Shown here in pieces: positions 3,536 to 57,707 of a stretch of DNA of 64,000 nt. The notes under the pieces were generated by a model. That model was not told the DNA's origin. It worked only from the letters and a program-made list of their open reading frames with translations, and searched no databases. Position 1 is the stretch's first letter; each line of letters starts with the position of its first letter. Location of the stretch: positions 1 through 64,000 of the forward strand of contig JAZDFD010000028.1 in the NCBI GenBank assembly GCA_043808155.1, given 5' to 3'. The stretch is from Candidatus Iainarchaeum sp. Its GTDB lineage: Archaea > Iainarchaeota > Iainarchaeia > Iainarchaeales > JAZDFD01. The position numbers and the translations under genes were made by a program.

Positions 3536-4510
3536 ATGAGCCATTTAAGTACACGTACAGTTAAGGGGAAAAAATACAACTATTTAGAGGAGTCTTTTAA
3601 GTTCAAAGGAAAATGGGTAAAAGAAAGCATTTATTTCGGGTCTGAAAAGCCTTCGCTTAAAAAATTGTTAAATGCGGTTGAAGAATTGAAAAAAAAATGC
3701 AAGAAAAAAAACCATTTAGTTTTGGTGCCTCCTTTAACTGAGTTTATCACAAACAAAACAGCGGAAAAGCTTCAGAAAGCAGCGGAAAATAAAAAAGATT
3801 TTATAAAAAAACTTTCTAAAAAACAAAAAGAGGAATTCATTAAAAGAGAAAGAATAACTTTTATAACAGATTCAAATGCGATTGAAGGAAGCTCACTAAA
3901 CTACAAAGAAACAGAGGAAATACTTTCACATGAAAAGCAAATAAAAAAAGCTGAAAAAAAGAACATTATTATAACAGGAATTGACAGAGAAGAACAAGAG
4001 GCATTAAATCTGAAAATGTGTTTAGACAGATATGATAAATATATGAAAATAAACTCAAAAATCTCTGAAAAAATGATTCTTCAACTGCACTACATTCTGC
4101 TCGAAAAAATTTCAGGGTTTGAAAAATACCAGGGTATTTACCGACCAGTTCAGGTTTATATAAGAGGCTCAACCCACGAATTTCCTTTACCGGAAAAAGT
4201 GCCAAGCTTAATAAAAGAATTAATCAACTGGCTGGAAGAAAATGGAAAAGTTGTCCACCCCGTAGAATTGGCCGCAAAGTTTCACACAAAATTTACTTCA
4301 ATTCACCCTTTTGCAGATGGAAATGGGCGAATGGCACGATTGCTGATGAATTATGTGTTGCAGCAAAAAGAATTTCCCTTCACAAACATTCCCTTAAAAA
4401 GAAGGCAGAACTACATGAAAACGCAGGCAGCCGGAAACAAGGGAGATTACAAGCCATTCACAAAATTCCTGTCAGACGAAACAATAAAACAGCATTCAAA
4501 AAGTGAATAA
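3536..4510 (+). CDS. Fic-domain protein (class II, with N-terminal beta-rich domain)
   Basis: Canonical HPFADGNGRMAR motif; SNAIEG autoinhibitory motif. Confidence 0.92.
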   Translation: MSHLSTRTVKGKKYNYLEESFKFKGKWVKESIYFGSEKPSLKKLLNAVEELKKKCKKKNHLVLVPPLTEFITNKTAEKLQKAAENKKDFIKKLSKKQKEEFIKRERITFITDSNAIEGSSLNYKETEEILSHEKQIKKAEKKNIIITGIDREEQEALNLKMCLDRYDKYMKINSKISEKMILQLHYILLEKISGFEKYQGIYRPVQVYIRGSTHEFPLPEKVPSLIKELINWLEENGKVVHPVELAAKFHTKFTSIHPFADGNGRMARLLMNYVLQQKEFPFTNIPLKRRQNYMKTQAAGNKGDYKPFTKFLSDETIKQHSKSE

Positions 4511-38496: not shown

Positions 38497-39816
38497 ATGG
38501 CAGATAAACCACACATAAATCTTGTATTCATTGGTCACGTTGACCATGGTAAGAGTACATTAGTTGGTAGACTTTTATACGATGCAGGGTCATTAAGTGA
38601 ACAGGAATACAGAAAGCTTGAGGCAGAAGCAAAGGAAAGAGGTAAAGGAACTTTTGCTTTCGCATATGCAATGGATAACCTCAAAGAAGAAAGAGAAAGA
38701 GGTATTACCATTGATGTTGCATACAGGAAATTTATTGCAAAAAAGAATGAATTCACAATTATTGATGCACCTGGTCACAAAGATTTTGTAAAAAATATGA
38801 TTACAGGAACAAGTCAGGCAGACGCAGCTGTTTTAGTTGTTGCAGCAAAAGAAGGAATCATGGCACAGACAAAGGAACACGCATTCCTTTCACAGGTCAT
38901 GGGAATCAAAAACATGGTTGTTGCAATAAACAAAATGGATGAAGTAGGTTACGATGAATCCAAATTTAAAGGTATTAAGGCGGATTTAGAAAAATTATTA
39001 AAGGGTGTTGGATTTAAAACAGACACATTGAAGTTCATCCCTGTTTCAGCATGGGAAGGCACCAATGTTGTTAAGAAATCTGATAAATTAGGATGGTATA
39101 AGGGTGACACATTATTAGAAACTCTTGATGCATTACCTGCACCTCAGTTACCGACAGACAAACCTTTGAGAATTCCTGTTCAGGATGTTTACACCATTAA
39201 GGGTGTTGGAACAGTTCCTGTTGGAAGAGTTGAAACCGGAATTATTAAACCAGGTGATAAAATAATTATTGAGCCAACAGGTGCAACTGGTGAAGTAAAA
39301 ACAGTTGAAATGCACCACGAAGCACTTCCAATGGCAAAACCAGGTGACAACATCGGTATTAACATCAGAGGAATTGGTAAATCTGATGTTGCAAGAGGAG
39401 ACGTAATAAGTCACGCAAGTGATCCTGCAACAGTTGCAAAGGAGTTCATTGCACAGATTGTTGTATTGAACCACCCAACTGCAATACCAGTAGGTTACAC
39501 ACCAGTATTCCACATGCACACAGCACAGTTAAGCTGTACATTGACGGAATTGCAGAAAAAACTCGATCCATTAACAGGCGCAGTTAAGGAAGAAAACCCA
39601 AAGTTCCTTAAGACAGGGGACGCAGCAATTGTAAAGATTGTTCCTACAAAACCTGTTGTTTGTGAAGAGTATAAGAAATTCCCACAATTGGGAAGATTTG
39701 CAATTAGAGACATGGGTCAGACAGTTGCAGCAGGAATTATCATAAGCGTAACACCTAAAGTAAGCGTAACGCCCAAGAGCGTAACACCTAAAGTAAGCGT
39801 AACGCCCAAGAAATGA
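38497..39816 (+). CDS. tuf: Elongation factor aEF-1alpha with repeated SVTPK tail
   Basis: [18 protein letters not shown] and GRFAIRDMG motifs. Confidence 0.98.
39745..39810 (+). repeat. Perfect 33 bp tandem duplication at the 3' end of tuf
   Basis: AGCGTAACACCTAAAGTAAGCGTAACGCCCAAG twice. Confidence 0.9.
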
Positions 39817-46662: not shown

Positions 46663-47456
46663 AAGCAGACGTATACTCAGTAGAGGGTAAAAAAGTAAAA
46701 GAAATTTCACTTCCTAAAGTATTTGATACTGAATATGATTCCGCATTAATCAAAAGATCTGTTTTAGCTTCACAGTCTGCAAGACTTCAGCCTAAGGGCG
46801 CATATCAAAACGCAGGAATGGATAATTCAGCTGTAATGAAAGGACGAAGAAGTTTCCCTGCAAGCGGAAGAAGTATTAATGTTGGACATGCAAGGCTTCC
46901 GCGTGTTAAAAGTCACAGAGCATTATTAGCAGGACACGTAGCCAGAGTCGCACAGGCACGCGGAGGTAAACGTGCACACCCTCCAAAAATTGAACAAAGG
47001 ATAGAGGAAAAAATAAACAAAAAAGAAAAAAAGAAAGCACTTGCATCAGCAATTGCAACAACTGTGAATTATGCATTAGTTTCAAAAAGACACAAAATAG
47101 CAGGAATTAAACTTCCAATTATTATGGAAGATAAATTCGCAGAACTGAAAAAAACCGCAGATGTTAAAAGTGTGTTAGAAAAATTGAATCTTTATACAGA
47201 TGTTGAAAATGCAAAAAACAAAAAACATGTACGCGCAGGCAAAGGAAAACTACGCGGAAGAAAATACAAAAGAAAGAAAAGTTTGCTTATTGTGACAGGC
47301 AAACAGGCACCTGTTTACAGAGCTGCAAGAAATTTAGAAGGTGTTGAAATTTGCACTGTAAGAAATTTAAATGCAGAATTGTTAGCACCAGGTGCAGAAG
47401 CAGGAAGATTGACAATATGGTTAGAAAGTGCAATTAGTGCATTGGAGACTAGGTGA
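46659..47456 (+). CDS. rpl4: Ribosomal protein uL4
   Basis: GGKRAHPPK, RAGKGKLRGR and LAPG..GRLTIW. Confidence 0.96.
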   Translation: MKADVYSVEGKKVKEISLPKVFDTEYDSALIKRSVLASQSARLQPKGAYQNAGMDNSAVMKGRRSFPASGRSINVGHARLPRVKSHRALLAGHVARVAQARGGKRAHPPKIEQRIEEKINKKEKKKALASAIATTVNYALVSKRHKIAGIKLPIIMEDKFAELKKTADVKSVLEKLNLYTDVENAKNKKHVRAGKGKLRGRKYKRKKSLLIVTGKQAPVYRAARNLEGVEICTVRNLNAELLAPGAEAGRLTIWLESAISALETR

Positions 47457-47460
47457 TTAA

Positions 47461-47883
47461 ATGGCTGCAGAAAAAAAAGTGAAAAAGGAAACAAAAGAAA
47501 AGAAAGCAGTCAAAGAAACAAAGAAAGCTGGAAAAACACCAGTAAAAGAAAAGAAAGACGATAAAAAAACTGAGAAAGTTAAACAGCTCTCAGCAAAAGA
47601 AACAACATCAAGTGAAGTTAAAGGTAAATTTTATTCAATTGTGAAACACCCTTTGATTTCAGAAAAAGCAGTTGGGATGATTGAAACACAAAACAAATTA
47701 ACTTTTGTTATTGAAAAAGGTTTTACTAAAAGTGAAGTTAAAAGGGCAGTAGAACAAATGTATAATGTAAAAGTTGACCGCGTCCAAGTAGTTAATGATA
47801 TGAAAGGAAGGAAAAAAGCAATTGTTAGAATAAACAAACAATACCGCGCAGATGAAATTGCAACAAAATTAGGGATATTGTAA
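47461..47883 (+). CDS. rpl23: Ribosomal protein uL23 with Lys/Glu-rich N-terminal extension
   Basis: HPLISEKA..NKLTF..KKAIV. Confidence 0.94.
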   Translation: MAAEKKVKKETKEKKAVKETKKAGKTPVKEKKDDKKTEKVKQLSAKETTSSEVKGKFYSIVKHPLISEKAVGMIETQNKLTFVIEKGFTKSEVKRAVEQMYNVKVDRVQVVNDMKGRKKAIVRINKQYRADEIATKLGIL

Positions 47884-47893
47884 GGTGTAAATT

Positions 47894-47971
47894 TTGAAAA
47901 ACCATAATTATTACTGTGGCATTGAAAATGCCACACATAAATCGGAGTACCCGTACGAAATCGGGTTGTGA
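47894..47971 (+). CDS. Bridging mini-ORF spanning element copy A
   Basis: TTG start after GGTG; MKNHNYYCGIENATHKSEYPYEIGL*; stops 4 nt before the rpl2 ATG. Confidence 0.45.
   Translation: MKNHNYYCGIENATHKSEYPYEIGL
47906..47966 (+). repeat. Intergenic hairpin element, copy A (rpl23/rpl2)
   Basis: AATTATTACT-GTGGCATT GAA AATGCCAC-ACATAAATCGGAGTACCCGTACGAAATCGGGT. Confidence 0.92.
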
Positions 47972-47975
47972 TAAC

Positions 47976-48707
47976 ATGCCTGGAAGACTAAAAACACAAA
48001 GAAGAGGTAGAGGGACTCCGAGATACCTGGCCTCAAATAAGGGGATTACATGTACATATATTAATTATACAGATGAACAAAAGAAAGATGTATTATTTGG
48101 CGAAGTTATTAGTTTGATAAAAACAACTGCAAGAAACAGTATTGTTGCAATTGAGAGATTTATAATAGACGGTAAGGAAACAGACTCACAAGTAATAGCT
48201 GCAGAAGGGTTAAGTGTTGGTCAGAAAATCCAATACGGGACTAATGCAGAACTTGCAATCGGAAATGTTTTACCACTTTCGAAGATTCCGGAGGGGTGCC
48301 CTATATTCAATATTGAAAAAGAAAGTGGGGATGGCGGAACATTTGTAAAAAGCAGCGGGATTTACGCAATATTAGTTACAAAGGACAAGAAAAATGCTTA
48401 CATTAAATTACCATCAGGAAAAACAAAACCATTCACCCTCTTGGCAAGAGCAACAATTGGATGTTCAGCATGCGGTGGAAGAACTGAAAAACCTTTCGTC
48501 AAAGCAGGAGCCAAATATTTTGCAATGAAAAGAAAAAGGAAAATGTGGCCAGTTGTAAGAGGTGTTGCAATGAACGCAGCATACCACCCACACGGTGGTG
48601 AACAGCACCATGTTGGTAAGAGTAAGTCTGTATCAAGACACGCTTCACCAGGAAGAAAGGTTGGTGCAATTGCTTCGAAGAGAACAGGAAGGAAAAAGAA
48701 AAACTAG
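47976..48707 (+). CDS. rpl2: Ribosomal protein uL2
   Basis: MPGRLKTQRRGRG and VRGVAMNA..HPHGG; the ORF-track extension from 47916 runs through the repeat element. Confidence 0.95.
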   Translation: MPGRLKTQRRGRGTPRYLASNKGITCTYINYTDEQKKDVLFGEVISLIKTTARNSIVAIERFIIDGKETDSQVIAAEGLSVGQKIQYGTNAELAIGNVLPLSKIPEGCPIFNIEKESGDGGTFVKSSGIYAILVTKDKKNAYIKLPSGKTKPFTLLARATIGCSACGGRTEKPFVKAGAKYFAMKRKRKMWPVVRGVAMNAAYHPHGGEQHHVGKSKSVSRHASPGRKVGAIASKRTGRKKKN

Positions 48708-48717
48708 GGTGTGTTAG

Positions 48718-49125
48718 ATGGCAAGAGTAGAAGAAACATGGCGCGGTAAAAAGATCGAAGATCTTAAATCAATGGATATTTCAGAATTTATGAAATTGAT
48801 AGATTCAAGAGCAAGAAGAAGTATGAAAAGAGGTTTTGATAAAAAGCTCATGAAACAGATTGACAATTATGCTGAAAAAATCAAAGATGGAAAATACCAA
48901 AAACCAATAAAAACACACCTGAGAGACACGATTGTGATTCCAAAAATGCTGGGACTTAAATTTGCAGTTTACAGAGGAAACAAGTTTGAGGATATTGACA
49001 TCGTACCAAATATGCTCGGGCATTTTTTGGGTGAATTTGCACTTACAAGAAAAAGACTTCAGCATGGAAAGGCAGGAATTGGTGCAACAAGATCAAGTAC
49101 TGCACTGAAGACAAAGAGAGTCTAA
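48718..49125 (+). CDS. rps19: Ribosomal protein uS19
   Basis: KTHLRD and MLGHFLGEFALTRK..HG..GIGATRSS. Confidence 0.96.
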   Translation: MARVEETWRGKKIEDLKSMDISEFMKLIDSRARRSMKRGFDKKLMKQIDNYAEKIKDGKYQKPIKTHLRDTIVIPKMLGLKFAVYRGNKFEDIDIVPNMLGHFLGEFALTRKRLQHGKAGIGATRSSTALKTKRV

Positions 49126-49133
49126 TGTGAAAA

Positions 49134-49262
49134 ATGATGATTAAGAAATATGAAAAAGCGGGTTATGACAGTGCCATCGCAGATGGCACGCGGAGCACCC
49201 CGTACGCAACCCTATTTCAACTCAGGGTTGAAATGGGCGCATTTCACAAAAAAGTGAAATAG
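49134..49262 (+). CDS. Bridging mini-ORF spanning element copy B
   Basis: MMIKKYEKAGYDSAIADGTRSTPYATLFQLRVEMGAFHKKVK* after GTGA. Confidence 0.4.
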   Translation: MMIKKYEKAGYDSAIADGTRSTPYATLFQLRVEMGAFHKKVK

Positions 49263-49265
49263 CGT
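49171..49265 (+). repeat. Composite hairpin element, copy B (rps19/rpl22)
   Basis: GTGCCATC GCA GATGGCAC, CGGAGCACCCCGTACG, and a double hairpin shared with 26430-26479. Confidence 0.85.
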
Positions 49266-49275
49266 CGAGTAGTGA

Positions 49276-49755
49276 TTGAAAATGGCTAAAAGAGAATATC
49301 AGAAAAAAGTGAAAAATGAAGCAAAGATTGCAAAAGCGATAGCTGCGAATAAGCCAATTTCAGTTAAATATGCGACAGAAATGTGCAGAGAAATTAAGGG
49401 AAGACCTGTAAACAAAGTTGAGAAATTTTTAAACAGAATAATGAACAAAGAGGATTTCTTACCTCTTAAAAGATATGTGAAGAAAGTAGCACACAGAAAA
49501 GGTGACTCAAAATCAGGAACTAAAACAGGAAAATATCCAATAAGAGTTGCAAATGCATTTCTTGAACTTATTCAAACTGCAAAAGCAAATGCAGATTTCA
49601 AAGGCATTGATACAGAATCGCTTTTGGTTTATCATGCATTTGCATCAACAGGTTTCAGAAGACACAGTGCACAGGCAAAAGGTCACATCGGCGGAAAGCG
49701 CAGAAGAAGTAAATCAACACATATTGAAATCATGCTTATAGAGGGAAAAAAATGA
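49276..49755 (+). CDS. rpl22: Ribosomal protein uL22
   Basis: GKYP..A..NA.. and THIEI; start probably at ATG 49282. Confidence 0.94.
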   Translation: MKMAKREYQKKVKNEAKIAKAIAANKPISVKYATEMCREIKGRPVNKVEKFLNRIMNKEDFLPLKRYVKKVAHRKGDSKSGTKTGKYPIRVANAFLELIQTAKANADFKGIDTESLLVYHAFASTGFRRHSAQAKGHIGGKRRRSKSTHIEIMLIEGKK

Positions 49756-50714
49756 TTGAAAGAACATTTATCAAACAGGCAATGAAAAAAATAGAGCTTG
49801 AGAAGTACATGAGAACCAATCTTGACAAAGCAGGGTTTACACACTTAGACATTGTGAAAACACCGTTGGTTACAAGAATCGTGCTTAATGTTACAAAACC
49901 AGGTCTGGCAATTGGAAAAGGCGGACAGACAATAAGACAACTTACAGAAGATATTGAAACAAAATTTGGAATTAACAATCCTCAGATAGAAATTAAGGAA
50001 ATTGAAAATCCAACATTAGATGCACAGGCAACAGTTGACAAAATGGTTGCATTACTTGAAAGAGGTTTCAGCTGGAGAAGTATTGCATTCAGAACTGTAA
50101 AAGACATTATGGCTGCAGGTGCGCAGGGTTGTGAACTTGTGCTTAGCGGAAAATTAACAGGAAAAGGCGGAAGAAAAAGAAAGCAGAGAATTGCAGAAGG
50201 ATATATGAAAAAAGTTGGACACCAAACAGAGTTAGTTGATTATGCAAAAAAATCCGCATACCCAAAAGCAGGTGCAATTGGAATTAAATTGAGAATAATT
50301 AAACCAGGAGTACAGTTCCCAGATAAAATAAAAATCAATGACATAATCACAAAGAAAAAAGCTCCTATCGTAGAAAAAGAAAATGCAGATGCTGGAAAAA
50401 CAGAAGTTACTGGTATCAAAGAAGAAGTGAAAATCGAAGTTAAAGAAAAAACTGAAAAGAAAGCAGAAGTTAAAGTTGAGAAGAAAGATAAGAAACCAGT
50501 AGCATATAAAAAAGATGCTAAAAAAGAAGTGACGAACGAAAAGAAAACAGATAAAAAGGAAGCAAAGAAATTTGATAAACCAAAAGAAGAAAAGAAAAAA
50601 TCAGATGACAAGAAAGAAACCAAAGTGAAAGAAGAAAAAGTTGACGACAAAAAAACTGAAAAGAAAGAAGTGAAAAAAGAAGATAAAAAATCAGATGAGA
50701 AAAAAGATAAGTGA
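49752..50714 (+). CDS. rps3: Ribosomal protein uS3 with about 115 aa Lys/Glu-rich C-terminal tail
   Basis: KPGLAIGKGG KH motif; GAQGCE..SGKL. Confidence 0.95.
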   Translation: MIERTFIKQAMKKIELEKYMRTNLDKAGFTHLDIVKTPLVTRIVLNVTKPGLAIGKGGQTIRQLTEDIETKFGINNPQIEIKEIENPTLDAQATVDKMVALLERGFSWRSIAFRTVKDIMAAGAQGCELVLSGKLTGKGGRKRKQRIAEGYMKKVGHQTELVDYAKKSAYPKAGAIGIKLRIIKPGVQFPDKIKINDIITKKKAPIVEKENADAGKTEVTGIKEEVKIEVKEKTEKKAEVKVEKKDKKPVAYKKDAKKEVTNEKKTDKKEAKKFDKPKEEKKKSDDKKETKVKEEKVDDKKTEKKEVKKEDKKSDEKKDK

Positions 50715-50719
50715 TATTT

Positions 50720-50806
50720 ATGAATACGGGAAAAAATTATTACCGCAGTATCGAACGAAGTGAAGATACTGCACATAAATCGGAGCACCCGTACGAAATC
50801 GGGTAG
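50720..50806 (+). CDS. Bridging mini-ORF spanning element copy C
   Basis: MNTGKNYYRSIERSEDTAHKSEHPYEIG*. Confidence 0.45.
   Translation: MNTGKNYYRSIERSEDTAHKSEHPYEIG
50735..50804 (+). repeat. Intergenic hairpin element, copy C (rps3/rpl29)
   Basis: AATTATTACC-GCAGTATC GAACGAAGTGAA GATACTGC-ACATAAATCGGAGCACCCGTACGAAATCGGGT. Confidence 0.92.
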
Positions 50807-50814
50807 TGATAGTT

Positions 50815-51024
50815 ATGACAAATAAAGAAGCTAAATCATTCAGGGAGCTTCCAAAAGAAGAACTGAATGAAAAATTAGTGGATTTGCAAACAGAGCTTGC
50901 AAAAGAAAGAGCAACAGTTGCGTCTGGTACGCGACCTGAAAATCCTGGGAACATCAGGAAGCTCAGAAGAAATATTGCAAGACTTAAAACAATAATTAAT
51001 GAAAAAAATGAGGTGACTAAGTAG
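50815..51024 (+). CDS. rpl29: Ribosomal protein uL29
   Basis: ENPGNIRKLRRNIARLKT. Confidence 0.94.
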   Translation: MTNKEAKSFRELPKEELNEKLVDLQTELAKERATVASGTRPENPGNIRKLRRNIARLKTIINEKNEVTK

Positions 51025-51026
51025 CA

Positions 51027-51329
51027 ATGGAAGATATTTGTCCTAAATGCGGTCTCCCGCAAAACCTTTGTGTTTGCCAGGAGATTGCGAAGGAAAGCCA
51101 AAAAATAAAAATAAGAACTGACAAAAGAAGATTTGGTAAATTAGTGACAATTGTTTCGGGTTTGGATGAATCAAAAAGTGCAGATCAATTATGCAAGGAA
51201 CTAAAAAGAAAACTTGCGTGTGGTGGCACTGTGAGAAACTCGGAAATTTTATTGCAAGGAAACCATAGTAAAAAAGTGAAAGCCTTTCTGCTAAAGCAGG
51301 GATATAAAGAGGAATTAATTGATGATTAA
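51027..51329 (+). CDS. Translation initiation factor aIF1/SUI1
   Basis: CPKCGLP..LCVC, LACGGT and LQGNH. Confidence 0.95.
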   Translation: MEDICPKCGLPQNLCVCQEIAKESQKIKIRTDKRRFGKLVTIVSGLDESKSADQLCKELKRKLACGGTVRNSEILLQGNHSKKVKAFLLKQGYKEELIDD

Positions 51330-51633
51330 GGGAAAACATTATGAAATAACACAAAAAAATCTGCCTGCACATGAGCTTATCGGGCTTAATGCAAAGGTTG
51401 TGAAAAGTGTTGATTCAAAAAAAACCGGAGTTAAGGGAAAAGTTGTAAATGAAACAAAAAATATTCTGGAATTGGAGAACAACAGCGTTATAAAAAAAAT
51501 CCCGAAAAAAGAAGTTGTGTTTGAATTTGAAATTGGAAATGAAAAAATTATAATTGACGGAAAAATGTTAAATGAAAAACCAGAGAATCGTGTAAAGGAG
51601 TTTTGGAGGAAATACCATGGAAAACTGCAATGA
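51319..51633 (+). CDS. rnp1: RNase P protein component 1 (Rpp29)
   Basis: HELIGL..G..GKVVNETKN..IPK..PENR. Confidence 0.92.
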   Translation: MMIKGKHYEITQKNLPAHELIGLNAKVVKSVDSKKTGVKGKVVNETKNILELENNSVIKKIPKKEVVFEFEIGNEKIIIDGKMLNEKPENRVKEFWRKYHGKLQ

Positions 51634-51952
51634 CCCAAAGTGCCCAAAATGCGGCAATATCAAAGTAAGGGGCAATATTTTCACAGGTATTGTAACATCT
51701 GCAAAAGCAGATAAGACAGTCACTGTTGAAAGACAGTTAGTTAAAAAAGTTAGAAAATATGAAAGATACAAAAAAATAAGATCCAAAATCCATGCACACA
51801 ATTCAAAATGTGTTTCAGCAAAAGAAGGCGACACAGTAAGAATTGGAGAAACAAGAAAATTAAGCAAAACAAAAAGTTTTGTTGTGATGGACATTCTTAA
51901 CAAAGGGTCAGATGAAAAGCCAAAAACAGATAAGAAAAAGGTGAAAAAATGA
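51617..51952 (+). CDS. rps17: Ribosomal protein uS17
   Basis: CNDPKCP, KYERY and ETRKLSKTK. Confidence 0.95.
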   Translation: MENCNDPKCPKCGNIKVRGNIFTGIVTSAKADKTVTVERQLVKKVRKYERYKKIRSKIHAHNSKCVSAKEGDTVRIGETRKLSKTKSFVVMDILNKGSDEKPKTDKKKVKK

Positions 51953-52347
51953 AAGCAATCAGCGCCAGAAGGACCATGGGTTTAACACAAAAAAGCAGAT
52001 GCGTTTGCGCAGACAACTCAGGCGCAAAAGAGGTTGAAATCATCACAGTTTTTGGTCACAAATCAAGAAAAAAGATGAGTCCAAAAGGCGGAATCGCAGA
52101 TATGGTTAATGTTGTTGTAAAAAAAGGAAAACCCGAAATCAGAAAAAAAGTTGAGCGTGCAGTTATTGTAAGAGTGAAACAAGAATACAGAAGAGCAAAT
52201 GGCATGAGAGTAAAATTCGAAGACAATGCAGTTGTTCTTGTGGATAATAAGGGAATTCCTAAAGGAAGTGAAATTAAAGGTGCAGTTGCAAAAGAAGCTG
52301 CAGAAAGATGGGTAAAAATCGGGGGCATTGCCTCAGTAGTAGTATAG
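51949..52347 (+). CDS. rpl14: Ribosomal protein uL14
   Basis: ADNSGAK, FEDNAVV and KGSEIKG. Confidence 0.96.
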   Translation: MKAISARRTMGLTQKSRCVCADNSGAKEVEIITVFGHKSRKKMSPKGGIADMVNVVVKKGKPEIRKKVERAVIVRVKQEYRRANGMRVKFEDNAVVLVDNKGIPKGSEIKGAVAKEAAERWVKIGGIASVVV

Positions 52348-52356
52348 GTGGATTAA

Positions 52357-52833
52357 ATGAAAAGCTCAAAACCAAGAAAACAAAGAAAAGCGCTTTACAC
52401 AAGAACTGTTCATAAAAAACAGAATGACTTAGCAGGGCATCTGAGTAAAGAACTCAGAAAAGAGCTGAAACAAAGATCAATTCCTCTGAGAAAAGAAGAC
52501 AAAGTTAAGATTATGAGAGGGTCACACAAGGCAAGAGAAGGAAAAATAATTGATGTTAATTACACCAAGGGATTTGTGTATATTGAAAAAGTTATCAGAA
52601 AAAAGGCAGACGGAACTGAAGTGCCGGTGCCGGTAAGAGCGTCAAATGTAATGGTTGTTGGCCTTTACAGAGATGATGACAGAAGAATTAAAAGAAAAAC
52701 TCTGAAAAAAGTCACAAAATCCGAAAAAAAAGACAAGAAAGAAAAAGCTTATGACAAAAAAGCATATACAAAAGTGAAAGAAGAGAAATCTGAAAAAAAG
52801 GAAGATAATAAAGCTAAGGCGAAGGTGAAATAA
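52357..52833 (+). CDS. rpl24: Ribosomal protein uL24 with charged C-terminal tail
   Basis: SSKPRKQRK, LSKELR and KOW motif. Confidence 0.95.
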   Translation: MKSSKPRKQRKALYTRTVHKKQNDLAGHLSKELRKELKQRSIPLRKEDKVKIMRGSHKAREGKIIDVNYTKGFVYIEKVIRKKADGTEVPVPVRASNVMVVGLYRDDDRRIKRKTLKKVTKSEKKDKKEKAYDKKAYTKVKEEKSEKKEDNKAKAKVK

Positions 52834-53552
52834 TGGCTAAAAAAGGAAGCAAAAAATCAGAAAAAAGAATAAGCACTGATAAAGTCAGAAACATAAAGAA
52901 AAAAGAAAAAACATGGACAATAAAGGCAGAGCCAGGACCTCACAAAAAATCAACTTCCGTACCTTTAGGTTTTATTTTGAGAGACCTTCTTGAAGTAGCA
53001 CAAAATTTGAGAGAAGTTAAACAGATACTTAACAGTAAAAGCGTCAAAGTAGACGGAACTTTAAGAACAAGTTACAGATTCCCTGTAGGTCTTTTCGATG
53101 TTGTTTCATTCAACAAAGATAAAAAAGGCTACAGATTAGTTTATGATTTTAAAGGCAGATTAATGGTCAAGGAAATTGAAGGCAAAGAACTTAACAAAAA
53201 AATATGTAAAATTACTAATAAAAAAACAGGGAAAACAGGAATTACTGAACTTGTAACAAATGATGGAAGAATATTCAAAGAAAAAAATGCGAAATACAAA
53301 GTTGGTGATTCATTAGAAATTGAACTTCCCGGCCAGAAAATTTCAAAGTCACTTGAATTCGCAAAAGGGAACACAGCATATGTTTCAGGCGGAACGCACA
53401 TTTCAGCAATGGGAAAAATAACAGAAATTGTTGCAGGAACAATGAAAAGAAAAACACTTGTTACATTGAAGACTGCAGACAAAGAAGAGTTCAGTACAAC
53501 TGAAAATAACATAATTGTTATTGGTAAAGAGAAAGGGGAAATAGATATTTAA
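52833..53552 (+). CDS. rps4e: Ribosomal protein eS4
   Basis: PGPH, VKVDG..FPVGLFDV and GGTH. Confidence 0.95.
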   Translation: MAKKGSKKSEKRISTDKVRNIKKKEKTWTIKAEPGPHKKSTSVPLGFILRDLLEVAQNLREVKQILNSKSVKVDGTLRTSYRFPVGLFDVVSFNKDKKGYRLVYDFKGRLMVKEIEGKELNKKICKITNKKTGKTGITELVTNDGRIFKEKNAKYKVGDSLEIELPGQKISKSLEFAKGNTAYVSGGTHISAMGKITEIVAGTMKRKTLVTLKTADKEEFSTTENNIIVIGKEKGEIDI

Positions 53553-53559
53553 AATTAGA

Positions 53560-54081
53560 GTGAGTTTTATGACAGAAAATACAATGCGCACAATCATTGT
53601 CGAGAAAGTTACTGTAAATATGGGTGTAGGCCAAGCTGGCGACGAACTCAAAAAATCAAAAACAGTAATTGAGACAATTACAGGTGCAAAAGCAATTGAA
53701 ACAAAGTGTAAAGTTAAACAACCAAAATGGGACATCAGACCAGGTTTACCTATTGGAATTAAAGTTACACTTAGAAAAAAACAGGCAACTGACTTTTTGA
53801 AACGTGCGATTAATGCAAAGCAAAACATAATCAAAAAAAAGAGTTTTGATATGCAGGGTAACTTCGGATTTGGAATCAAAGAACATATTGATCTTCCAGG
53901 AGTTAAATATGACCCTAAATTAGGAATACGGGGTCTTGATGTTTTAGTAACACTTAAAAGAAACGGACAGCGTGTTAAGAAAAGAAAAATTGCAAAAACA
54001 AAAATTGGCAAAAAGCACATAATAACAAAAAAAGACGCAATGCAATTCATGAAAGAACAATTTGGAGTTGAAGTTGAATGA
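53560..54081 (+). CDS. rpl5: Ribosomal protein uL5
   Basis: IGIKVTLR and [20 protein letters not shown]. Confidence 0.96.
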
Positions 54082-54248
54082 GTTCCAAAACAAAAGGTCC
54101 AAAAAAAGATCTAAAAAAAGAAAAACAAGCAAGAGTATGCACAAATTGCGGGACTAGAAATGCAATCATAAGAAAATACAATCTCAATGTCTGCAGAAGA
54201 TGCTTTAAAGAATTAGCAGAAAAATTAGGCTTTAGGAAATATGGTTAA
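54078..54248 (+). CDS. rps14: Ribosomal protein uS14 (56 aa, not in the ORF track)
   Basis: CTNCG...[25 protein letters not shown]; lies between L5 and S8. Confidence 0.94.
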
Positions 54249-54255
54249 ATGAGGG

Positions 54256-54657
54256 GTGGTAAAAATGACATTAGTAGATCCAATAGCAAACGCAATGATA
54301 AGCATTAAGAATAGCGACATTGCCTCAAAAAAAGAATGTATATTTCGACCTGCATCAAAACTTCTGGGAAAAATCTTAGAAGTTATGCAAAAAAAAGGAT
54401 ACATCGGAATTTATGAATTCATAGATGACGGACAAGAAGGTATTTACAAAATAGAACTTAAAGGAAAAATTAATGATTGTAAAGCAATAAAGCCAAGATA
54501 TGCAGTTAAGAAAGATGGATTTGAAAAATTTGAAAAAAGATATTTACCTTCAAAGGATGTTGGAATTTTGATTGTTTCAACACCAGAGGGTGTATTAACA
54601 CATAAAGAAGCAAAGGAATCCAATGTCGGGGGCAGATTATTAGCTTATATTTATTAA
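54256..54657 (+). CDS. rps8: Ribosomal protein uS8
   Basis: DPIANA, IKPRY and STPEG..GGRLLAY. Confidence 0.96.
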
Positions 54658-54668
54658 TGGTGTTTTGA

Positions 54669-55211
54669 ATGAAAACAGGATTTGTGGAAGAAATAATTGA
54701 AGTGCCGGAAGGCATTGAATGTGAAATTCAGAAAAAGACAGTTACTGTTAAGAAAGGAGATAAAACAATCACAAAAACATTTGATATGATTGGAGTAGTT
54801 TTCAAAAAAGAAGGGAACAGAGTTCAGATTTCCACAAAATATCCTAAGAAAAAAACTGCAGCAATGCTGAAAACAGCAGCGGCTCATTTGAAAAATATGA
54901 TTAACGGACTTCAGGAAGAATATGTGTATAAGCTCGCAATTATTTATTCACACTTTCCAATGACTGTTACAGTTAAAGATGGATTTTTAGAAATAAACAA
55001 CTTTGCAGGTGAGAAAAAAACCAGAAAAGCAAAGATTATGGCTAATACAAAAGTTGAAGTTAAGGGGAAAGAAGTTACAGTTAGATCACATAACAAGGAA
55101 AATGCAGGTCAGACTACGGCAAATATTGAATCTGCAACAAAAGTAAAAGGAAAAGATAAAAGAATTTTTCAAGATGGCATTTGGATTACTGAAAAACCAA
55201 AGAAAAGATAA
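54669..55211 (+). CDS. rpl6: Ribosomal protein uL6
   Basis: YSHFPM, NFAGEK, GQTTANIE and DKRIFQDGI. Confidence 0.96.
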   Translation: MKTGFVEEIIEVPEGIECEIQKKTVTVKKGDKTITKTFDMIGVVFKKEGNRVQISTKYPKKKTAAMLKTAAAHLKNMINGLQEEYVYKLAIIYSHFPMTVTVKDGFLEINNFAGEKKTRKAKIMANTKVEVKGKEVTVRSHNKENAGQTTANIESATKVKGKDKRIFQDGIWITEKPKKR

Positions 55212-55774
55212 TGGGTGAAAACATGGCAACTGCAGAAAAACACAAAACTGATAAAAAAGAAGTGACGAAAGCAAAGAAAACATCAGTTACAACAAAAAAA
55301 GCAGATACTAAAACAAAAACTGCAGAAAAAAAAGAAACAACTGCAAAGAAAAAAACTGCAGAAAAAAAACCAGGTGCTAAAAAAACAATTAAAAAAAGCA
55401 GTGCTGCAAAAAAAGCACAGGCATTAATTAAAAAGAAAGTTAAGAAACCAAGTTTCAGAGGAAGATTTGGTTCGAGAAAATTCAGAAGAAAAAGTAACGC
55501 AAAATGGGACAAATGGAGAAAACCGCGTGGTATTGATATCAAAGACACCCAGGAAAACGGAACTAGTCCAAGAACAGGTTATGGTACTTGCAAACTCATA
55601 AAGACTATGCACCCTTCAGGATATTATGAAAAAATGATATTTAATCCAAGAGATTTGGACGGTATTGATGCAGAAAGATTTGCATTGAGAATTTCAGCAG
55701 GTGTAGGAAAGAAAAAAAGGTCTGAAATTGCAAAAAAAGCAAGGGAAATGGGACTACGTATTTTAAACAGGTGA
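55211..55774 (+). CDS. rpl32e: Ribosomal protein eL32 with Lys/Thr/Ala-rich N-terminal extension
   Basis: WRKPRGID, GYG and HPSG. Confidence 0.94.
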   Translation: MGENMATAEKHKTDKKEVTKAKKTSVTTKKADTKTKTAEKKETTAKKKTAEKKPGAKKTIKKSSAAKKAQALIKKKVKKPSFRGRFGSRKFRRKSNAKWDKWRKPRGIDIKDTQENGTSPRTGYGTCKLIKTMHPSGYYEKMIFNPRDLDGIDAERFALRISAGVGKKKRSEIAKKAREMGLRILNR

Positions 55775-55778
55775 AAAA

Positions 55779-55856
55779 ATGATTTACAAAAAAAATTATT
55801 ACCGTGGGATTGTAAATCCCACACATAAATCGGAGCACCCGTACGAAATCGGGTAG
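55779..55856 (+). CDS. Bridging mini-ORF spanning element copy D
   Basis: MIYKKNYYRGIVNPTHKSEHPYEIG* after AGGTGA. Confidence 0.45.
   Translation: MIYKKNYYRGIVNPTHKSEHPYEIG
55794..55854 (+). repeat. Intergenic hairpin element, copy D (rpl32e/rpl19e)
   Basis: AATTATTACC-GTGGGATT GTA AATCCCAC-ACATAAATCGGAGCACCCGTACGAAATCGGGT. Confidence 0.92.
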
Positions 55857-55865
55857 GTGAAATGA

Positions 55866-56306
55866 ATGAAACTAGACCAAGTAAAGAGATTAGCCGCAGA
55901 TGTTCTTAACGTGGGCGTAACCAGAATATGGATTGACCCTAAAGAAGTTGGGAATGTTGCAGAAGTTATTACAAAAGATGATGTAAGAGCTTTAGTTGCA
56001 GACGGAGTAATCAAGAAAAGAAGAGTGCAGGCACAAAGCCACGGCCATGCACGTTTATTAGCTGAAAAGAAAAGTAAAGGTCTGAAAAAAGGAAAAGGTA
56101 AAAGAAAAGGAAAAGTTAATGCAAGAACACATAGAAAGAAAAAGTGGATTAAAACAGTCCGTGCACAAAGAGATGAACTTAAAAAACTTAAAACAGAAAA
56201 CCCTGAAGCAGTTGCAGAAGCAAATTACCATTCTATTTACAGAAGAATAAAAGGCGGATATTACAAAGGTAGAAAATACGTGAGAAGCGCAGTACTTAAG
56301 AAGTGA
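55866..56306 (+). CDS. rpl19e: Ribosomal protein eL19
   Basis: KRLAADVL.VG..RIWIDP, W...R.QR and Y...KGG. Confidence 0.95.
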   Translation: MKLDQVKRLAADVLNVGVTRIWIDPKEVGNVAEVITKDDVRALVADGVIKKRRVQAQSHGHARLLAEKKSKGLKKGKGKRKGKVNARTHRKKKWIKTVRAQRDELKKLKTENPEAVAEANYHSIYRRIKGGYYKGRKYVRSAVLKK

Positions 56307-56311
56307 TGATT

Positions 56312-56416
56312 ATGAATTTAGAAGAAAATTATTACCGTGGTTTTGAGCAAAACGAAAAACCACACATAACTCGGAGCACCCGTACGAAATCGGGTAGTGC
56401 AATACTTAAGAAGTGA
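56312..56416 (+). CDS. Bridging mini-ORF spanning element copy E
   Basis: MNLEENYYRGFEQNEKPHITRSTRTKSGSAILKK*; ends in a duplicate of the rpl19e C-terminus; an in-frame ATG also overlaps the rpl19e stop at 56306. Confidence 0.45.
   Translation: MNLEENYYRGFEQNEKPHITRSTRTKSGSAILKK
56327..56395 (+). repeat. Intergenic hairpin element, copy E (rpl19e/rpl18)
   Basis: AATTATTACC-GTGGTTTT GAGCAAAACGA AAAACCAC-ACATAACTCGGAGCACCCGTACGAAATCGGGT; flanked by a 22 bp near-duplicate. Confidence 0.92.
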
Positions 56417-56422
56417 TAAATT

Positions 56423-57010
56423 ATGGCAAACAAAGCAACATACGATGTTCAATTCAAAAGAAGAAGCAATGGTAAAACCAATTACAAAAAAAGACTGGCA
56501 TTAGTTAAATCAGGAAAGCCAAGATTAGTTGTAAGGAAAACCAACAGCAGAATAATTGTACAGATTATTGCATATGAGAGACCCGGTGACAAGGTTATTG
56601 TAAGTGCAACATCAGTACAGCTTAAAAAATATGGCTGGGCAGGAAACAAAAATATACCTTCAGCATATTTAACAGGATTACTTTGCGGAATGCGCGCAAA
56701 AGAAGCAAAAATTAATCAAGCAGTTTTAGATATTGGATTTAGAACACCTGTTCACATGTCAGTTCCATTCGCAGCACTAAAAGGTGCACTGGATGCAGGG
56801 CTTGACATTCCATTTGATGAAACCGCACTTCCAAAAGAAGACAGAATCACAGGAAAACATATTGAAAACTATGCAAATTCATTGGATAGCGAAGAAATTA
56901 ACAAAAAGTTTTCAAAAATGATTAAAAATAATGTAAATCCAAAAGAAATTACAAAAATATTCCAAAATACTAAAGAGAAAATTGTGGGAAACAGTAATGT
57001 AAAAGAGTGA
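56423..57010 (+). CDS. rpl18: Ribosomal protein uL18
   Basis: GKTNYKKRL, RLVVRKTN, SAYLTG and LKGALDAG. Confidence 0.96.
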   Translation: MANKATYDVQFKRRSNGKTNYKKRLALVKSGKPRLVVRKTNSRIIVQIIAYERPGDKVIVSATSVQLKKYGWAGNKNIPSAYLTGLLCGMRAKEAKINQAVLDIGFRTPVHMSVPFAALKGALDAGLDIPFDETALPKEDRITGKHIENYANSLDSEEINKKFSKMIKNNVNPKEITKIFQNTKEKIVGNSNVKE

Positions 57011-57014
57011 TGAT

Positions 57015-57707
57015 ATGGCAGTTAGAAGAAGACAAACCGCAGAAGAGAGAGAATCCAAAAGGCTGAAAGATAAAGAGCAGGAACTGATTAAATGGGTGGC
57101 TAAAACAAAATTAGGCAAAATGGTACAGAATGAAGAAATCAAATCATTAGACGAAGTCTTTGCTAAAAATATGAAAATACTTGAACCGGAAATTGTTGAT
57201 ACACTTTTGAGCCTTGAAGAAGAAATGGTTGACTTTAAGAAAACTTCCAGAGTTGTAAGAGCAGGAAGAAAATTTTCATTCCGTGTTACAATGCTTGTTG
57301 GTGATAAAAACAAGTATGTGGGATACGGAACTGCAAAAGATGTTGAAAGATTCCCTGCAATGAGAAAGGCAGTCAGAAAAGCAAAACTTAATCTTGTAGA
57401 AGTTAAGAAAGGCTGCGGAAGCTGGGAATGCACCTGCGGTGCCGAGCATTCAGTACCTTTTGAAGTTGAAGGGAAATGTGCATCAGTACATGTGCGATTA
57501 ATACCTGCACCAAAAGGAGTTGGATTAGTTGCAGGTGACAATATTAAAAAAGTGCTTGAAATGGCAGGTCTGAAAGATGTATGGACAAAAACATCAGGCA
57601 ACACAAGAACAAAATTGAATTTTGTTATTGCTGCAGTTGACGCACTTTCAAAAACAGGGAAAATGAGAATGTCAGATGACATTGCAAAAAAGTTTGAACA
57701 CAAGTGA
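57015..57707 (+). CDS. rps5: Ribosomal protein uS5
   Basis: W..KTKLG, GCGSWEC and PAPKGVGLV. Confidence 0.96.
   Translation: MAVRRRQTAEERESKRLKDKEQELIKWVAKTKLGKMVQNEEIKSLDEVFAKNMKILEPEIVDTLLSLEEEMVDFKKTSRVVRAGRKFSFRVTMLVGDKNKYVGYGTAKDVERFPAMRKAVRKAKLNLVEVKKGCGSWECTCGAEHSVPFEVEGKCASVHVRLIPAPKGVGLVAGDNIKKVLEMAGLKDVWTKTSGNTRTKLNFVIAAVDALSKTGKMRMSDDIAKKFEHK

Follow-up and report, generated by a model that had tools for sequence, protein, structure and literature searches.

Introns of transfer RNA (tRNA) genes in the Thermoproteales have reportedly undergone 'transposition' (work ascribed to Fujishima et al., 2010), with related intervening sequences in different tRNA genes of one genome. The same phenomenon is treated in part of the preprint 10.64898/2026.10.13.758758. 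Judged from the passages available, this is the nearest archaeal precedent for the element family described here, which was found in a 64,000-nt stretch of Candidatus Iainarchaeum sp. DNA (contig JAZDFD010000028.1, positions 1 to 64,000; hereafter the window). The archaeal ribosomal-protein (r-protein) cluster of the window, with gene identities taken from Pfam, holds four copies of a short hairpin element, all on the + strand. As in the Thermoproteales, where recurrence across the tRNA genes of one genome implies spread, members of the family recur at tRNA genes. However, the element is also found outside tRNAs, as operon insertions with target duplications, it abuts tRNA ends, and its 3' hairpin (P3) follows a strict polarity; the passages on the Thermoproteales introns report no dispersed donor element. 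The repeats are very probably copies of a small non-autonomous mobile insertion element. Its insertions are polymorphic among close relatives, the duplications start at the P3 end, and members of the family are found throughout one order. Where copies meet tRNAs or tRNA exons, it is the P3 end that joins their natural termini head-on, and new copies are probably made from this 3' end.

Short interspersed nuclear elements (SINEs) and other non-autonomous retroposons of the target-primed reverse transcription type (compare PMC3747384, PMC5135761) resemble the element in several respects. It is small and non-coding, its structured 3' end could be the entry point for copying, its duplications vary in length and accompany one defined junction with occasional filler, it is linked to tRNA genes, and many lineages are found per genome. 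Duplications of variable length, 11–46 nt, flank copies with a defined 3' end, as in SINEs, whereas the reverse transcriptase (RT) expected in the same cell was found neither in the host genome nor in most of the element's carriers (7 of 56 have one). Unlike SINEs, the element lives in an archaeal host with a 1 Mb genome, most carriers lack a partner RT, there is no poly-A or simple-repeat tail, the duplications extend to 46 nt, and copies are joined to functional tRNA genes and lie inside their introns.

The RT of the Mauriceville retroplasmid starts at a 3' tRNA-like end and captures tRNAs. Chimeric U6/LINE-1 retrocopies form after ligation by RtcB, according to the sections available of PMC6789731. 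In both systems, as far as those sections go, the junctions coincide with the natural ends of small RNAs, arise by RNA ligation, end-to-end template switching or promiscuous priming and later become fixed in DNA, and the junctions of the element are of the same kind. Both have a known RT, whereas the searches found no enzyme for the element, and its junctions are sense as well as antisense. MITEs (miniature inverted-repeat transposable elements) and repetitive extragenic palindromic (REP) sequences of prokaryotes, including REPINs, are like the element short, multi-copy, hairpin-forming, mostly intergenic and non-autonomous, according to the parts of PMC10969869 and PMC3116915 available. The element differs from them in its polar joining to RNA termini and in the absence of terminal inverted repeats, of a short fixed duplication and of a REP-associated tyrosine transposase (RAYT) or other transposase. 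Membership among MITEs was rejected because the element ends are not inverted copies of one another and the duplications are not of fixed length. The REP/MITE-like nature suggested in the first-pass annotation was given up on these grounds and because no Y1 transposase or RAYT was found and TnpB-type genes do not track the element. No description of the family was found in the literature searched, supplementary files being outside that search.

The four window copies begin with the box AATTATTAC(C/T), followed by a variable hairpin (P2) and a 3' 32-mer, ACATAAATCGGAGCACCCGTACGAAATCGGGT. The 32-mer has four matches at 0–1 mismatch, compared with none in 100 dinucleotide shuffles. The P2 stems, GTGGCATT/AATGCCAC, GCAGTATC/GATACTGC, GTGGGATT/AATCCCAC and GTGGTTTT/AAAACCAC, differ in sequence and pair perfectly in each copy, and the closing P3 hairpin ACCCG-TACGAAAT-CGGGT is present in 4/4. 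The first-pass annotation had described these positions, the common strand, the perfectly paired stems, a 32-mer conserved to within one base and the closing hairpin, and all of them were confirmed; the compensatory change that it had claimed is borne out by the alignments below. Its four-copy description was correct at the core and lacked a third helix (P1), a variant fifth copy, the flanking duplications and the size of the family.

The complete element is 62–80 nt long and contains three covarying helices. In P1 (4 bp), four bases of the 5' box pair with AUA(A/U) after P2 (ATTA/TAAT register), and this pairing covaries. P2 comprises 8 bp of any sequence and is closed by a GAAA-like loop or an extended GA-R...Y-GAA loop, the inner R-Y pair of which covaries. 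The UAC(C/U)/AC internal loop between P1 and P2 is invariant. A conserved unpaired linker, CACAUA..(U)CGG, precedes P3, the loop of which reads NCG(A/C/G)AA. The element begins ATATTA(C/T)C.. and ends in the ..CGGGT strand of the P3 stem. Pseudoknot pairing of the UACC loop with the linker CGG was considered and dropped, as no covariation was seen on reading the alignment.

RNAalifold applied to a MAFFT alignment of 13 copies recovers both hairpins, with double changes in 9 of 13 pairs. A covariance model, R1, follows this alignment with the P1 helix added and was used to gather copies from other genomes into alignments A2 (40 distinct rows) and A3 (48 rows). In these alignments, which are fitted to R1, double changes occur in 17/17 pairs of the three helices (A2) and 16/17 (A3), and 97.1% and 97.6% of the paired cells, respectively, hold pairs. 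The corresponding value for shuffled alignments is 63–65%, with 0 of 500 shuffles reaching the observed level, and pairing falls to 36–49% when the partners are slid by 1–3 columns. G-U exceeds A-C in the helices by 4:0, 14:7 and 29:1 across the three alignments (47:8 in total), which identifies the folding strand as the sense strand, that of the r-protein genes. Antisense RNA as the functional folding strand has some appeal, because the complementary strand carries T-runs after the element and a tRNA followed by an antisense element resembles a co-transcribed trailer. It was rejected on the 47:8 ratio and because the GNRA-type and GA..GAA loops are sense-strand motifs.

Searching the whole window with Rfam at gathering thresholds returned two tRNAs only, and a search of 55700–56460 at E ≤ 10 with permissive filters returned two weak matches, neither on an element. 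The check for a known family that had been proposed thus gave no match in Rfam, IS-end libraries being outside the search. Known ribozyme and r-protein leader families (hammerhead, twister, pistol, hatchet, hepatitis delta virus (HDV)-like, hairpin) were rejected for want of an Rfam match. A group II intron was also rejected, given the length of 62–80 nt, the three helices, the genome without an RT and the absence of an Rfam intron match.

The host genome (1.08 Mb, 35% G+C, 88% complete), marked as archaeal by its L19e and L32e genes and its RNase P RNA, yielded 47 R1 matches at E ≤ 1, 41 of which have E ≤ 1.7e-4. Of the 151 genomes of the order that were sampled, the same model identified the element in 56, which belong to 32 of the 66 genera and mostly have several copies each. 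This is the genome search that had been suggested, performed with a model built from more than four copies. Families f33–f37 gave 0/11; the 151-genome 'phylum' sample is almost entirely of the same order and says little on other orders. Scanning genome contigs, own genome excluded, with a 20-base gapped pattern identified two loci. One is an archaeal contig from a metagenome-assembled genome (MAG), with two matches ~100 nt apart. The other (L076, 7260–7290), from a bacterial Candidatus Uhrbacteria MAG, was dismissed as a chance match, with no hairpin and no 5' box nearby. The family is modular. At least four kinds of 3' hairpin module are combined with the 5' module (box, P2, CACATA), an extra two-hairpin module is nested in P2 or replaces P3 in some copies, and a form without P1 is referred to as 'type B'. 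Most copies are at tRNA genes or at other loci outside the r-protein operon. In the host genome ~12 copies lie in sense orientation directly before the Shine-Dalgarno sequence (SD) of protein genes, and three copies abut a convergent protein gene, 3 nt from its stop codon.

Near relatives of the element's host are present in groundwater metagenomes, and contigs from four groundwater runs were compared with the window over positions 47000–57500. These relatives mostly differ by ~5–10% or more, and the stretches that their contigs leave uncovered are a weak part of the comparison. The copy at 55794 is missing in runs X2 (record 12, 734 nt) and X4 (record 29), where position 55777 is joined to 55865 and 87 nt are skipped, with matching sides of 255 and 175 nt. 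The sequence at the empty site is CAGGTGAAAA|AATGAAACTAG, in which the 14-mer found on both sides of the window element stands only once. The same copy is spanned by an independent contig (run X1, record 7). At the 56327 copy, 56313 is joined to 56423 with 109 nt skipped and 16 other letters present (sides of 201 nt in X2 and 70 nt in X4). The variant copy at 49161 is missing in X2/X4 through a joint of 49160 to 49274 (113 nt skipped, sides of 31 and 55 nt). The joint at the 50735 copy (50718 to 50812, 93 nt skipped, X2/X4) is weak, with sides of 24–31 nt. At the L23/L2 site, the X2/X4 contig matches to 47940, then shows 24 other letters and continues at 47869. These letters resemble the 3' module of 'type B' (GCGGATCACCCGTACGCAATCGGG), so that this site of X2/X4 appears to hold a copy that is differently built or placed. 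The presence of window copies in some strains and their absence in others shows that they are polymorphic, dispensable insertions and not assembly artefacts. The first-pass annotation had offered a non-autonomous element as one possibility, and the polymorphic insertions flanked by target duplications bear it out; the assembly artefact that it had raised as a concern is countered by the X1 contig that spans the 55794 copy and the X2/X4 contigs that lack it. A cis-regulatory or processing motif of the r-protein messenger RNA (mRNA), its other suggestion, does not hold as the primary nature of the element because relatives lack the copies and most copies are elsewhere; an acquired side effect on r-protein gene expression may exist.

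To find target duplications, the left flank was compared with the sequence from the P3 end onward for the best gap-free repeat, with a control of 100 shuffles. Significant duplications (p ≤ 0.02) were identified at 11 of 36 copies in the host genome and at 13 of 42 and 14 of 49 copies in other genomes. Two of the eleven are not simple duplications, one being a distant repeat (C26:56426) and the other involving paralogous tRNA-Pro genes (C1:15026). The right copy of a duplication begins at -1 to +2 of the last P3 base. The youngest repeats are perfect, 23 nt long at loci L060 and L067, 39 nt at L084 and 46 nt at L114. In these cases the left copy ends exactly at the first P1 base, which delimits the mobile unit to P1 through P3 only. 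Older copies, including those of the window, have an A-rich filler of 3–25 nt at their 5' junction. Arrays of the form [duplication-element]n, in tandem, were also found.

In the window, the duplicated segments extend from the SD to one base past the ATG (L29, L19e) or from the L19e stop codon through the SD to the ATG (L18), and the duplicates of copy 4 stay similar up to the ATG on both sides. Since L29, L19e and L18 regain their SD and start through the duplications, the downstream genes keep an intact ribosome-binding site, and the upstream duplicate would start a short frame that runs into the element. At copy 1 the flanking duplication is not significant (p 0.95 vs shuffles), and an SD-like GTGAT with the ATG of L2 (47976) directly follows the element.

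A conserved C/D-box-like small RNA has elements at the identical 3'-end site in four genomes, and the presence of two different copies at one such 3' end in L049 indicates independent hits. This recurrent target has the layout TGATGA .. CTGA .. ATGATGA .. GATGGGCGGACTGA, and the elements lie just past its D box and terminal stem, with a 12–15 nt duplication of its 3' end. The loci are L047 (G018:C4, about 39100–39400), L049 (G073), L050 (G099), L055 (G032) and L113 (G062), from two families. No target-site consensus was evident at the duplication starts, which were listed by eye. P2 as a guide to the target was rejected, as P2 arms showed no similarity by eye to duplications or flanks. The 3' end of 16S ribosomal RNA (rRNA) (..GGATCACCTCCT) as a primer at SD sites was rejected likewise, because the junctions start AGGTGA/AGTGAT without the GGAG part and the duplications reach well beyond the SD.

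The position of P3 relative to tRNAs was examined by running Aragorn on all sequences with R1 matches, which gave 52 element–tRNA pairs of neighbours within 120 nt. In 37 pairs the P3 end is located no more than 6 nt from the terminus of a tRNA or a tRNA exon, and in the remaining 15 it is farther away; the 5' end of the element is within 6 nt of a terminus in 0/52. Elements on the strand opposite to the tRNA place P3 at the tRNA 3' end (20 cases) or at the end of exon 1, which is the 5' splice site (8 cases). Elements on the same strand place it at the tRNA 5' end (8 cases) or at the start of exon 2 (1 case), and tRNA-Tyr is one more case of the latter after by-eye correction of the Aragorn intron borders. 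The rule of antisense orientation at 3' termini and sense orientation at 5' termini has no exception among the 37 abutting pairs. In the printed introns the antisense P3 begins 0–4 nt past the 5' splice site, and ~10 copies form the bulk of canonical-position tRNA introns at 0–6 nt from the splice site. Mature tRNA ends and splice sites exist as such only in RNA, where RNase P, tRNase Z and the splicing endonuclease define them, and an archaeal RNase P RNA is present in the host genome. The joining of one fixed element end to RNA-processing positions, in end-to-end orientation, points to RNA termini as the partners. On the tRNA strand, T-runs come after several of the tRNA-trailer copies, and many tRNA leaders carry related two-hairpin modules. 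Leader–trailer pairing in the manner of an rRNA-processing stem was considered and rejected; the copies that flank tRNA-Ile, tRNA-Ala(TGC) and the C35 tRNA are not mutually complementary.

Taken as a whole, we favor the reading that copying of this mobile element starts at its 3' hairpin end, by a process resembling retroposition, to which we assign a probability of roughly 45%. Copying primed at the 3' end predicts a folding sense strand, a hairpin at the 3' terminus, duplications of variable length, filler at the far end and the polarity rule. The sense-strand RNA would be copied from its 3' hairpin end with a free 3'-OH as the primer. Priming at a nick in target DNA would account for the dispersed copies and their variable duplications, and priming by the 3' terminus of a tRNA or exon 1 for the antisense junctions. 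The sense junctions would arise when the polymerase, on arriving at the 5' terminus of a tRNA or exon 2, jumps onto the element 3' end. Copies located 1–2 nt upstream of a tRNA could serve as sources, where the RNase P cut would release an RNA that ends at P3. That an RNA intermediate takes part in the copying is suggested indirectly by the junctions at RNA-processing sites and the G-U excess of the sense strand, at odds somewhat short of even. Our tentative proposal, itself rather doubtful, is that the family is an archaeal counterpart of SINEs, i.e., a structured RNA of ~65 nt copied to DNA from its 3' hairpin by a polymerase other than a canonical RT, with any 3'-OH as the primer, and a still active source of tRNA introns, leaders, trailers and operon insertions. 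The polymerase could be a housekeeping enzyme, an uncharacterised one or an external one from a host or a virus.

Several observations weigh against retroposition-like copying. No RT (Pfam RVT_1) was found in the 88%-complete host genome. Among the 151 genomes of the order an RT is present in 20, and in 7 of the 56 that bear the element, with no tracking between the two. In family f30 the element is present in 13/15 genomes and an RT in 0/15, in f16 the figures are 6/6 and 0/6, and in f3 they are 0/16 and 8/16; f30 and f16 are the families in which the element is most abundant. A route through RNA would thus depend on a polymerase that is non-canonical or comes from outside. For 25 of the 36 host-genome copies, including the copies that abut tRNA 3' ends, no duplication is detectable. 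About 97% of the helix pairs are Watson-Crick, which fits a single-stranded DNA intermediate too, and the pair counts from A2 and A3 come from alignments fitted to R1 and favour it, the MAFFT alignment being independent of the model. A run of five or more A precedes the 5' box in 13 of 40 copies vs a background of 8.3%, and the A-rich stretch with the TATA-like 5' box may reflect selection for promoter or terminator function. The enzyme searches covered RVT_1, Y1_Tnp and TnpB-type genes. Y1_Tnp (PF01797) had no match at E ≤ 0.01 in the 88%-complete host genome, with the control positive in 6/14 known genomes. TnpB-type genes do not track the element over the 151 genomes (f30 0/15, f16 0/6). 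Two TnpB/Cas12f-type genes (PF07282) are located in G000 at C23:25545–25742 and C7:9042–9236, in open frames of 429 and 414 aa.

Movement at the DNA level could account for part of these data, with the sense single strand folding and being inserted either by a transposase or nuclease with a wide stagger between its cuts, or, with no enzyme of its own, by polymerases that switch template or prime at replication forks in the way termed fork stalling and template switching (FoSTeS) or microhomology-mediated break-induced replication (MMBIR), the 3'-OH hairpin end being the primer. The ~97% Watson-Crick pairing with few wobbles in P2 and P3, the long and variable duplications with occasional filler at the 5' junction, and the lack of an RT in most element-bearing genomes all fit such a process; IS1634-type elements also make long, variable duplications, and hairpins at both termini could protect a flap. 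Nonetheless, we consider DNA-level movement rather unlikely. It is hard to see how such a process would locate mature tRNA ends and splice sites with a precision of 0–2 nt, terminal inverted repeats are lacking in the element, the search for a Y1 transposase found none, the TnpB-type genes do not track, and the G-U excess of 47:8 on one strand requires a single-stranded intermediate of fixed polarity. Another rival is a REP/REPIN-like or IS200/IS605-derived palindromic element (of the palindrome-associated transposable element (PATE) or MITE type) moved by a Y1 (HUH) transposase. The target of IS608 is TTAC, and the element has a hairpin with a conserved 5' flank that contains TTAC and is mostly extragenic. 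In a preprint, as far as the part available shows, the REP-associated tyrosine transposase KEGG orthology (KO) group is the only strict transposase KO in 256 Nanobdellota proteomes. However, such elements insert without duplications, compared with 11–46 nt here, which largely refutes this explanation. With no Y1_Tnp in the host genome, TnpB-type genes that do not track and a common form without an inverted-repeat partner, it is scarcely credible.

The element could instead be a functional cassette, supplying in sense orientation a promoter that resembles the TFB recognition element (BRE) and TATA box (a purine-rich run and ATATTA) with a structured leader, and in antisense orientation a trailer hairpin with an oligo-T terminator. 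Its hairpin could also aid RNase P, tRNase Z or the splicing endonuclease, and copies in the r-protein operon could be internal promoters or mRNA processing or stability elements. The 5' box does resemble the archaeal BRE/TATA, A5+ runs are enriched before it (13/40 vs 8.3%), ~12 sense copies stand directly before the SDs of protein genes, T-runs follow several tRNA-trailer copies, and related two-hairpin modules occur in many tRNA leaders. A cassette as the primary nature is nevertheless improbable, because the window copies are dispensable and missing in close relatives, the spacing between the TATA-like box and CACATA is not fixed but depends, over a span of 9 nt, on the length of the P2 loop, the duplications show insertion and not conservation in place, and promoter or terminator logic does not explain why P3 alone abuts exons inside introns (9–10 vs 0). 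A small catalytic RNA, i.e., a new self-cleaving or self-inserting ribozyme with the internal loop and linker as the active site, would free itself from co-transcripts or attack pre-tRNA processing sites with its 3'-OH. The compact three-helix fold with invariant unpaired UAC(C/U)/AC, CACAUA, CGG and CGAAA beside freely varying helices is suggestive of this, and the sense junctions at tRNA 5' ends and exon-2 starts fit 3'-OH attack. Mobile elements often carry ribozymes, e.g., the HDV-like ones of R2 and L1Tc, as the available part of the literature has it. We regard the ribozyme as very improbable because there is no Rfam ribozyme match even at E ≤ 10, the antisense junctions (28/37) cannot come from attack by the sense RNA, and a 3' module exchangeable among four types is unusual for an active site.

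The positions of the window copies, their parts and their duplications are given in Table 1. The variant fifth copy, of the 'type B' form without P1, consists of the hairpin GTGCCATC..GATGGCAC followed by GCGGAGC, with a fold z of -3.8. A two-hairpin module (about 49211–49263) is nested at the expected closing position of P3, and the covariance model scores the hairpin alone (8.7 bits). Folding gave no bulge-helix-bulge (BHB) in this variant, the only window copy folded for it.

Table 1 Element copies and flanking duplications in the window.
Feature	Position	Strand	Description
Copy 1	47906..47966	+	between L23 and L2 genes; 83.1 bits under the covariance model
Copy 1, parts	47906-47915; 47916-47934; 47935-47966		5' box/P1; P2; linker and P3
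Variant fifth copy, 'type B'	49161..49273	+	between S19 and L22 genes
Copy 2 duplication, left	50710..50723	+	AGTGATATTTATGA; SD, start codon and one more base
Copy 2	50735..50804	+	between S3 and L29 genes; 91.9 bits
Copy 2, parts	50735-50744; 50745-50772; 50773-50804		first box; P2 (28 nt); 32-mer
Copy 2 duplication, right	50805-50818	+	AGTGATAGTTATGA; 13/14 identical, p 0.02 vs 100 shuffles
Copy 3 duplication, left	55769..55782	+	AGGTGAAAAAATGA; 11-nt A-rich filler (55783-55793) before the element
Copy 3	55794..55854	+	between L32e and L19e genes; 85.4 bits
Copy 3, parts	55794-55803; 55804-55822; 55823-55854		first box; P2; 32-mer
Copy 3 duplication, right	55855-55869	+	AGGTGAAATGAATGA; diverged
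Copy 4 duplication, left	56286..56307	+	AGCGCAGTACTTAAGAAGTGAT; end of L19e gene with stop codon, plus SD
Copy 4	56327..56395	+	between L19e and L18 genes; 97 bits
Copy 4, parts	56327-56336; 56337-56363; 56364-56395		first box; P2 (27 nt, GA..GAA extended loop); 32-mer
Copy 4 duplication, right	56396-56417	+	AGTGCAATACTTAAGAAGTGAT; score 17, reached by 0/100 shuffles

The duplicated SD and start upstream of copies 2–4 open frames of 25–35 codons (50720–50806, 55780–55857 and 56308–56417), which cross the element and stop in or beside the SD of the real gene; the stop region of the copy 2 frame reads TAG TGA TAG at 50804–50812. Their translation, coupled to that of the gene downstream, is a possibility. 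Three window copies yield similar short peptides (..NYY..HKSE(H/Y)PYEIG-stop) from the duplicated SD and start. A small protein-coding gene was rejected as the identity of the element because its frame is not conserved across copies, a consequence of the differing P2 lengths (19, 27 and 28 nt). A coding role was discarded as well, the peptide frame being lost in copy 4, C1:17929 and C31.

A second repeated module contains two hairpins, ..CTATTTCA-loop-TGAAATGGGC(G/A)CATTTC-loop-GAAAT(A/C)G.. Instances identified by eye are located in the window at 49211–49263, in G000 at C14:53219–53345, C35:18403–18531, C13:16408–16531 and C1:155–196, in the leader of tRNA-Thr(tgt) at C6:39333 and in the trailer of tRNA-Val(gac) at C1:86991. 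It has the look of a further small mobile module, one with the element as its insertion target. A symmetric form of the element is present at G000 C2:2430–2570 and C2:5357–5448, with a central hairpin and inverted linker-plus-P3 arms on both sides. Inverted arms occur only in this rarer symmetric 'type B' form (C2:2455–2549). It is flanked by an 18-nt direct repeat, CAACTCAACGCTGAGCCT, a motif that resembles the ends of tRNA leaders, and this repeat occurs a third time, directly next to a different element that lies on the opposite strand at a distance of 2.8 kb.

GC-rich, structured leaders reaching the mature 5' end were seen at ten or more tRNAs in the 70 nt upstream that were examined, for example tRNA-Trp (C1:10370), tRNA-Pro (C1:15099), tRNA-Arg (C6:22252), tRNA-Val (C34:12214) and the C35/C26 tRNAs. 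These leaders comprise a GTGC..GCAC hairpin, (A/C)CGCAC and a TCGCCGG..CGGCGA hairpin, often with CTC(G/A)AGG(A/T)T...GCCT afterwards, and they look like P1-less ('type B') relatives of the element that R1 does not score. Because no TATA-like box is found at -25, the leaders must be transcribed and then removed by RNase P. The rRNA operon (C26, about 83380–83711) carries modules too. There, the 16S 3' end (..GGATCACCTCCT) is followed by a spacer with tRNA-Ala(TGC), which has a two-hairpin leader running into its first bases and an antisense element at its 3' end. The whole-genome Aragorn list contains only 31 tRNAs and misses or mislabels several that lie beside elements or have element-bearing introns, such as tRNA-Glu(UUC) (C26, about 73750–73950) and a tRNA at C20, about 3960–4130, that is called 'Pyl(cta)'. 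The tRNA introns are up to 169 nt long (tRNA-Trp).

How tRNA introns arrive in archaea is an open question. Here, a single family is seen in three states, as a fresh insertion flanked by duplications, as the body of a tRNA intron and as a tRNA leader or trailer, with strict polarity in all of them. Genes that tRNA finders overlook or split wrongly in these genomes are accounted for by the family, and R1 is usable for annotating these genomes. Very small archaeal genomes are usually thought to be poor in mobile DNA; the element would add a type of mobile element with long, variable duplications and no recognisable transposase or RT. The joining rule may show how archaeal tRNA introns arise, and it makes intron gain testable.

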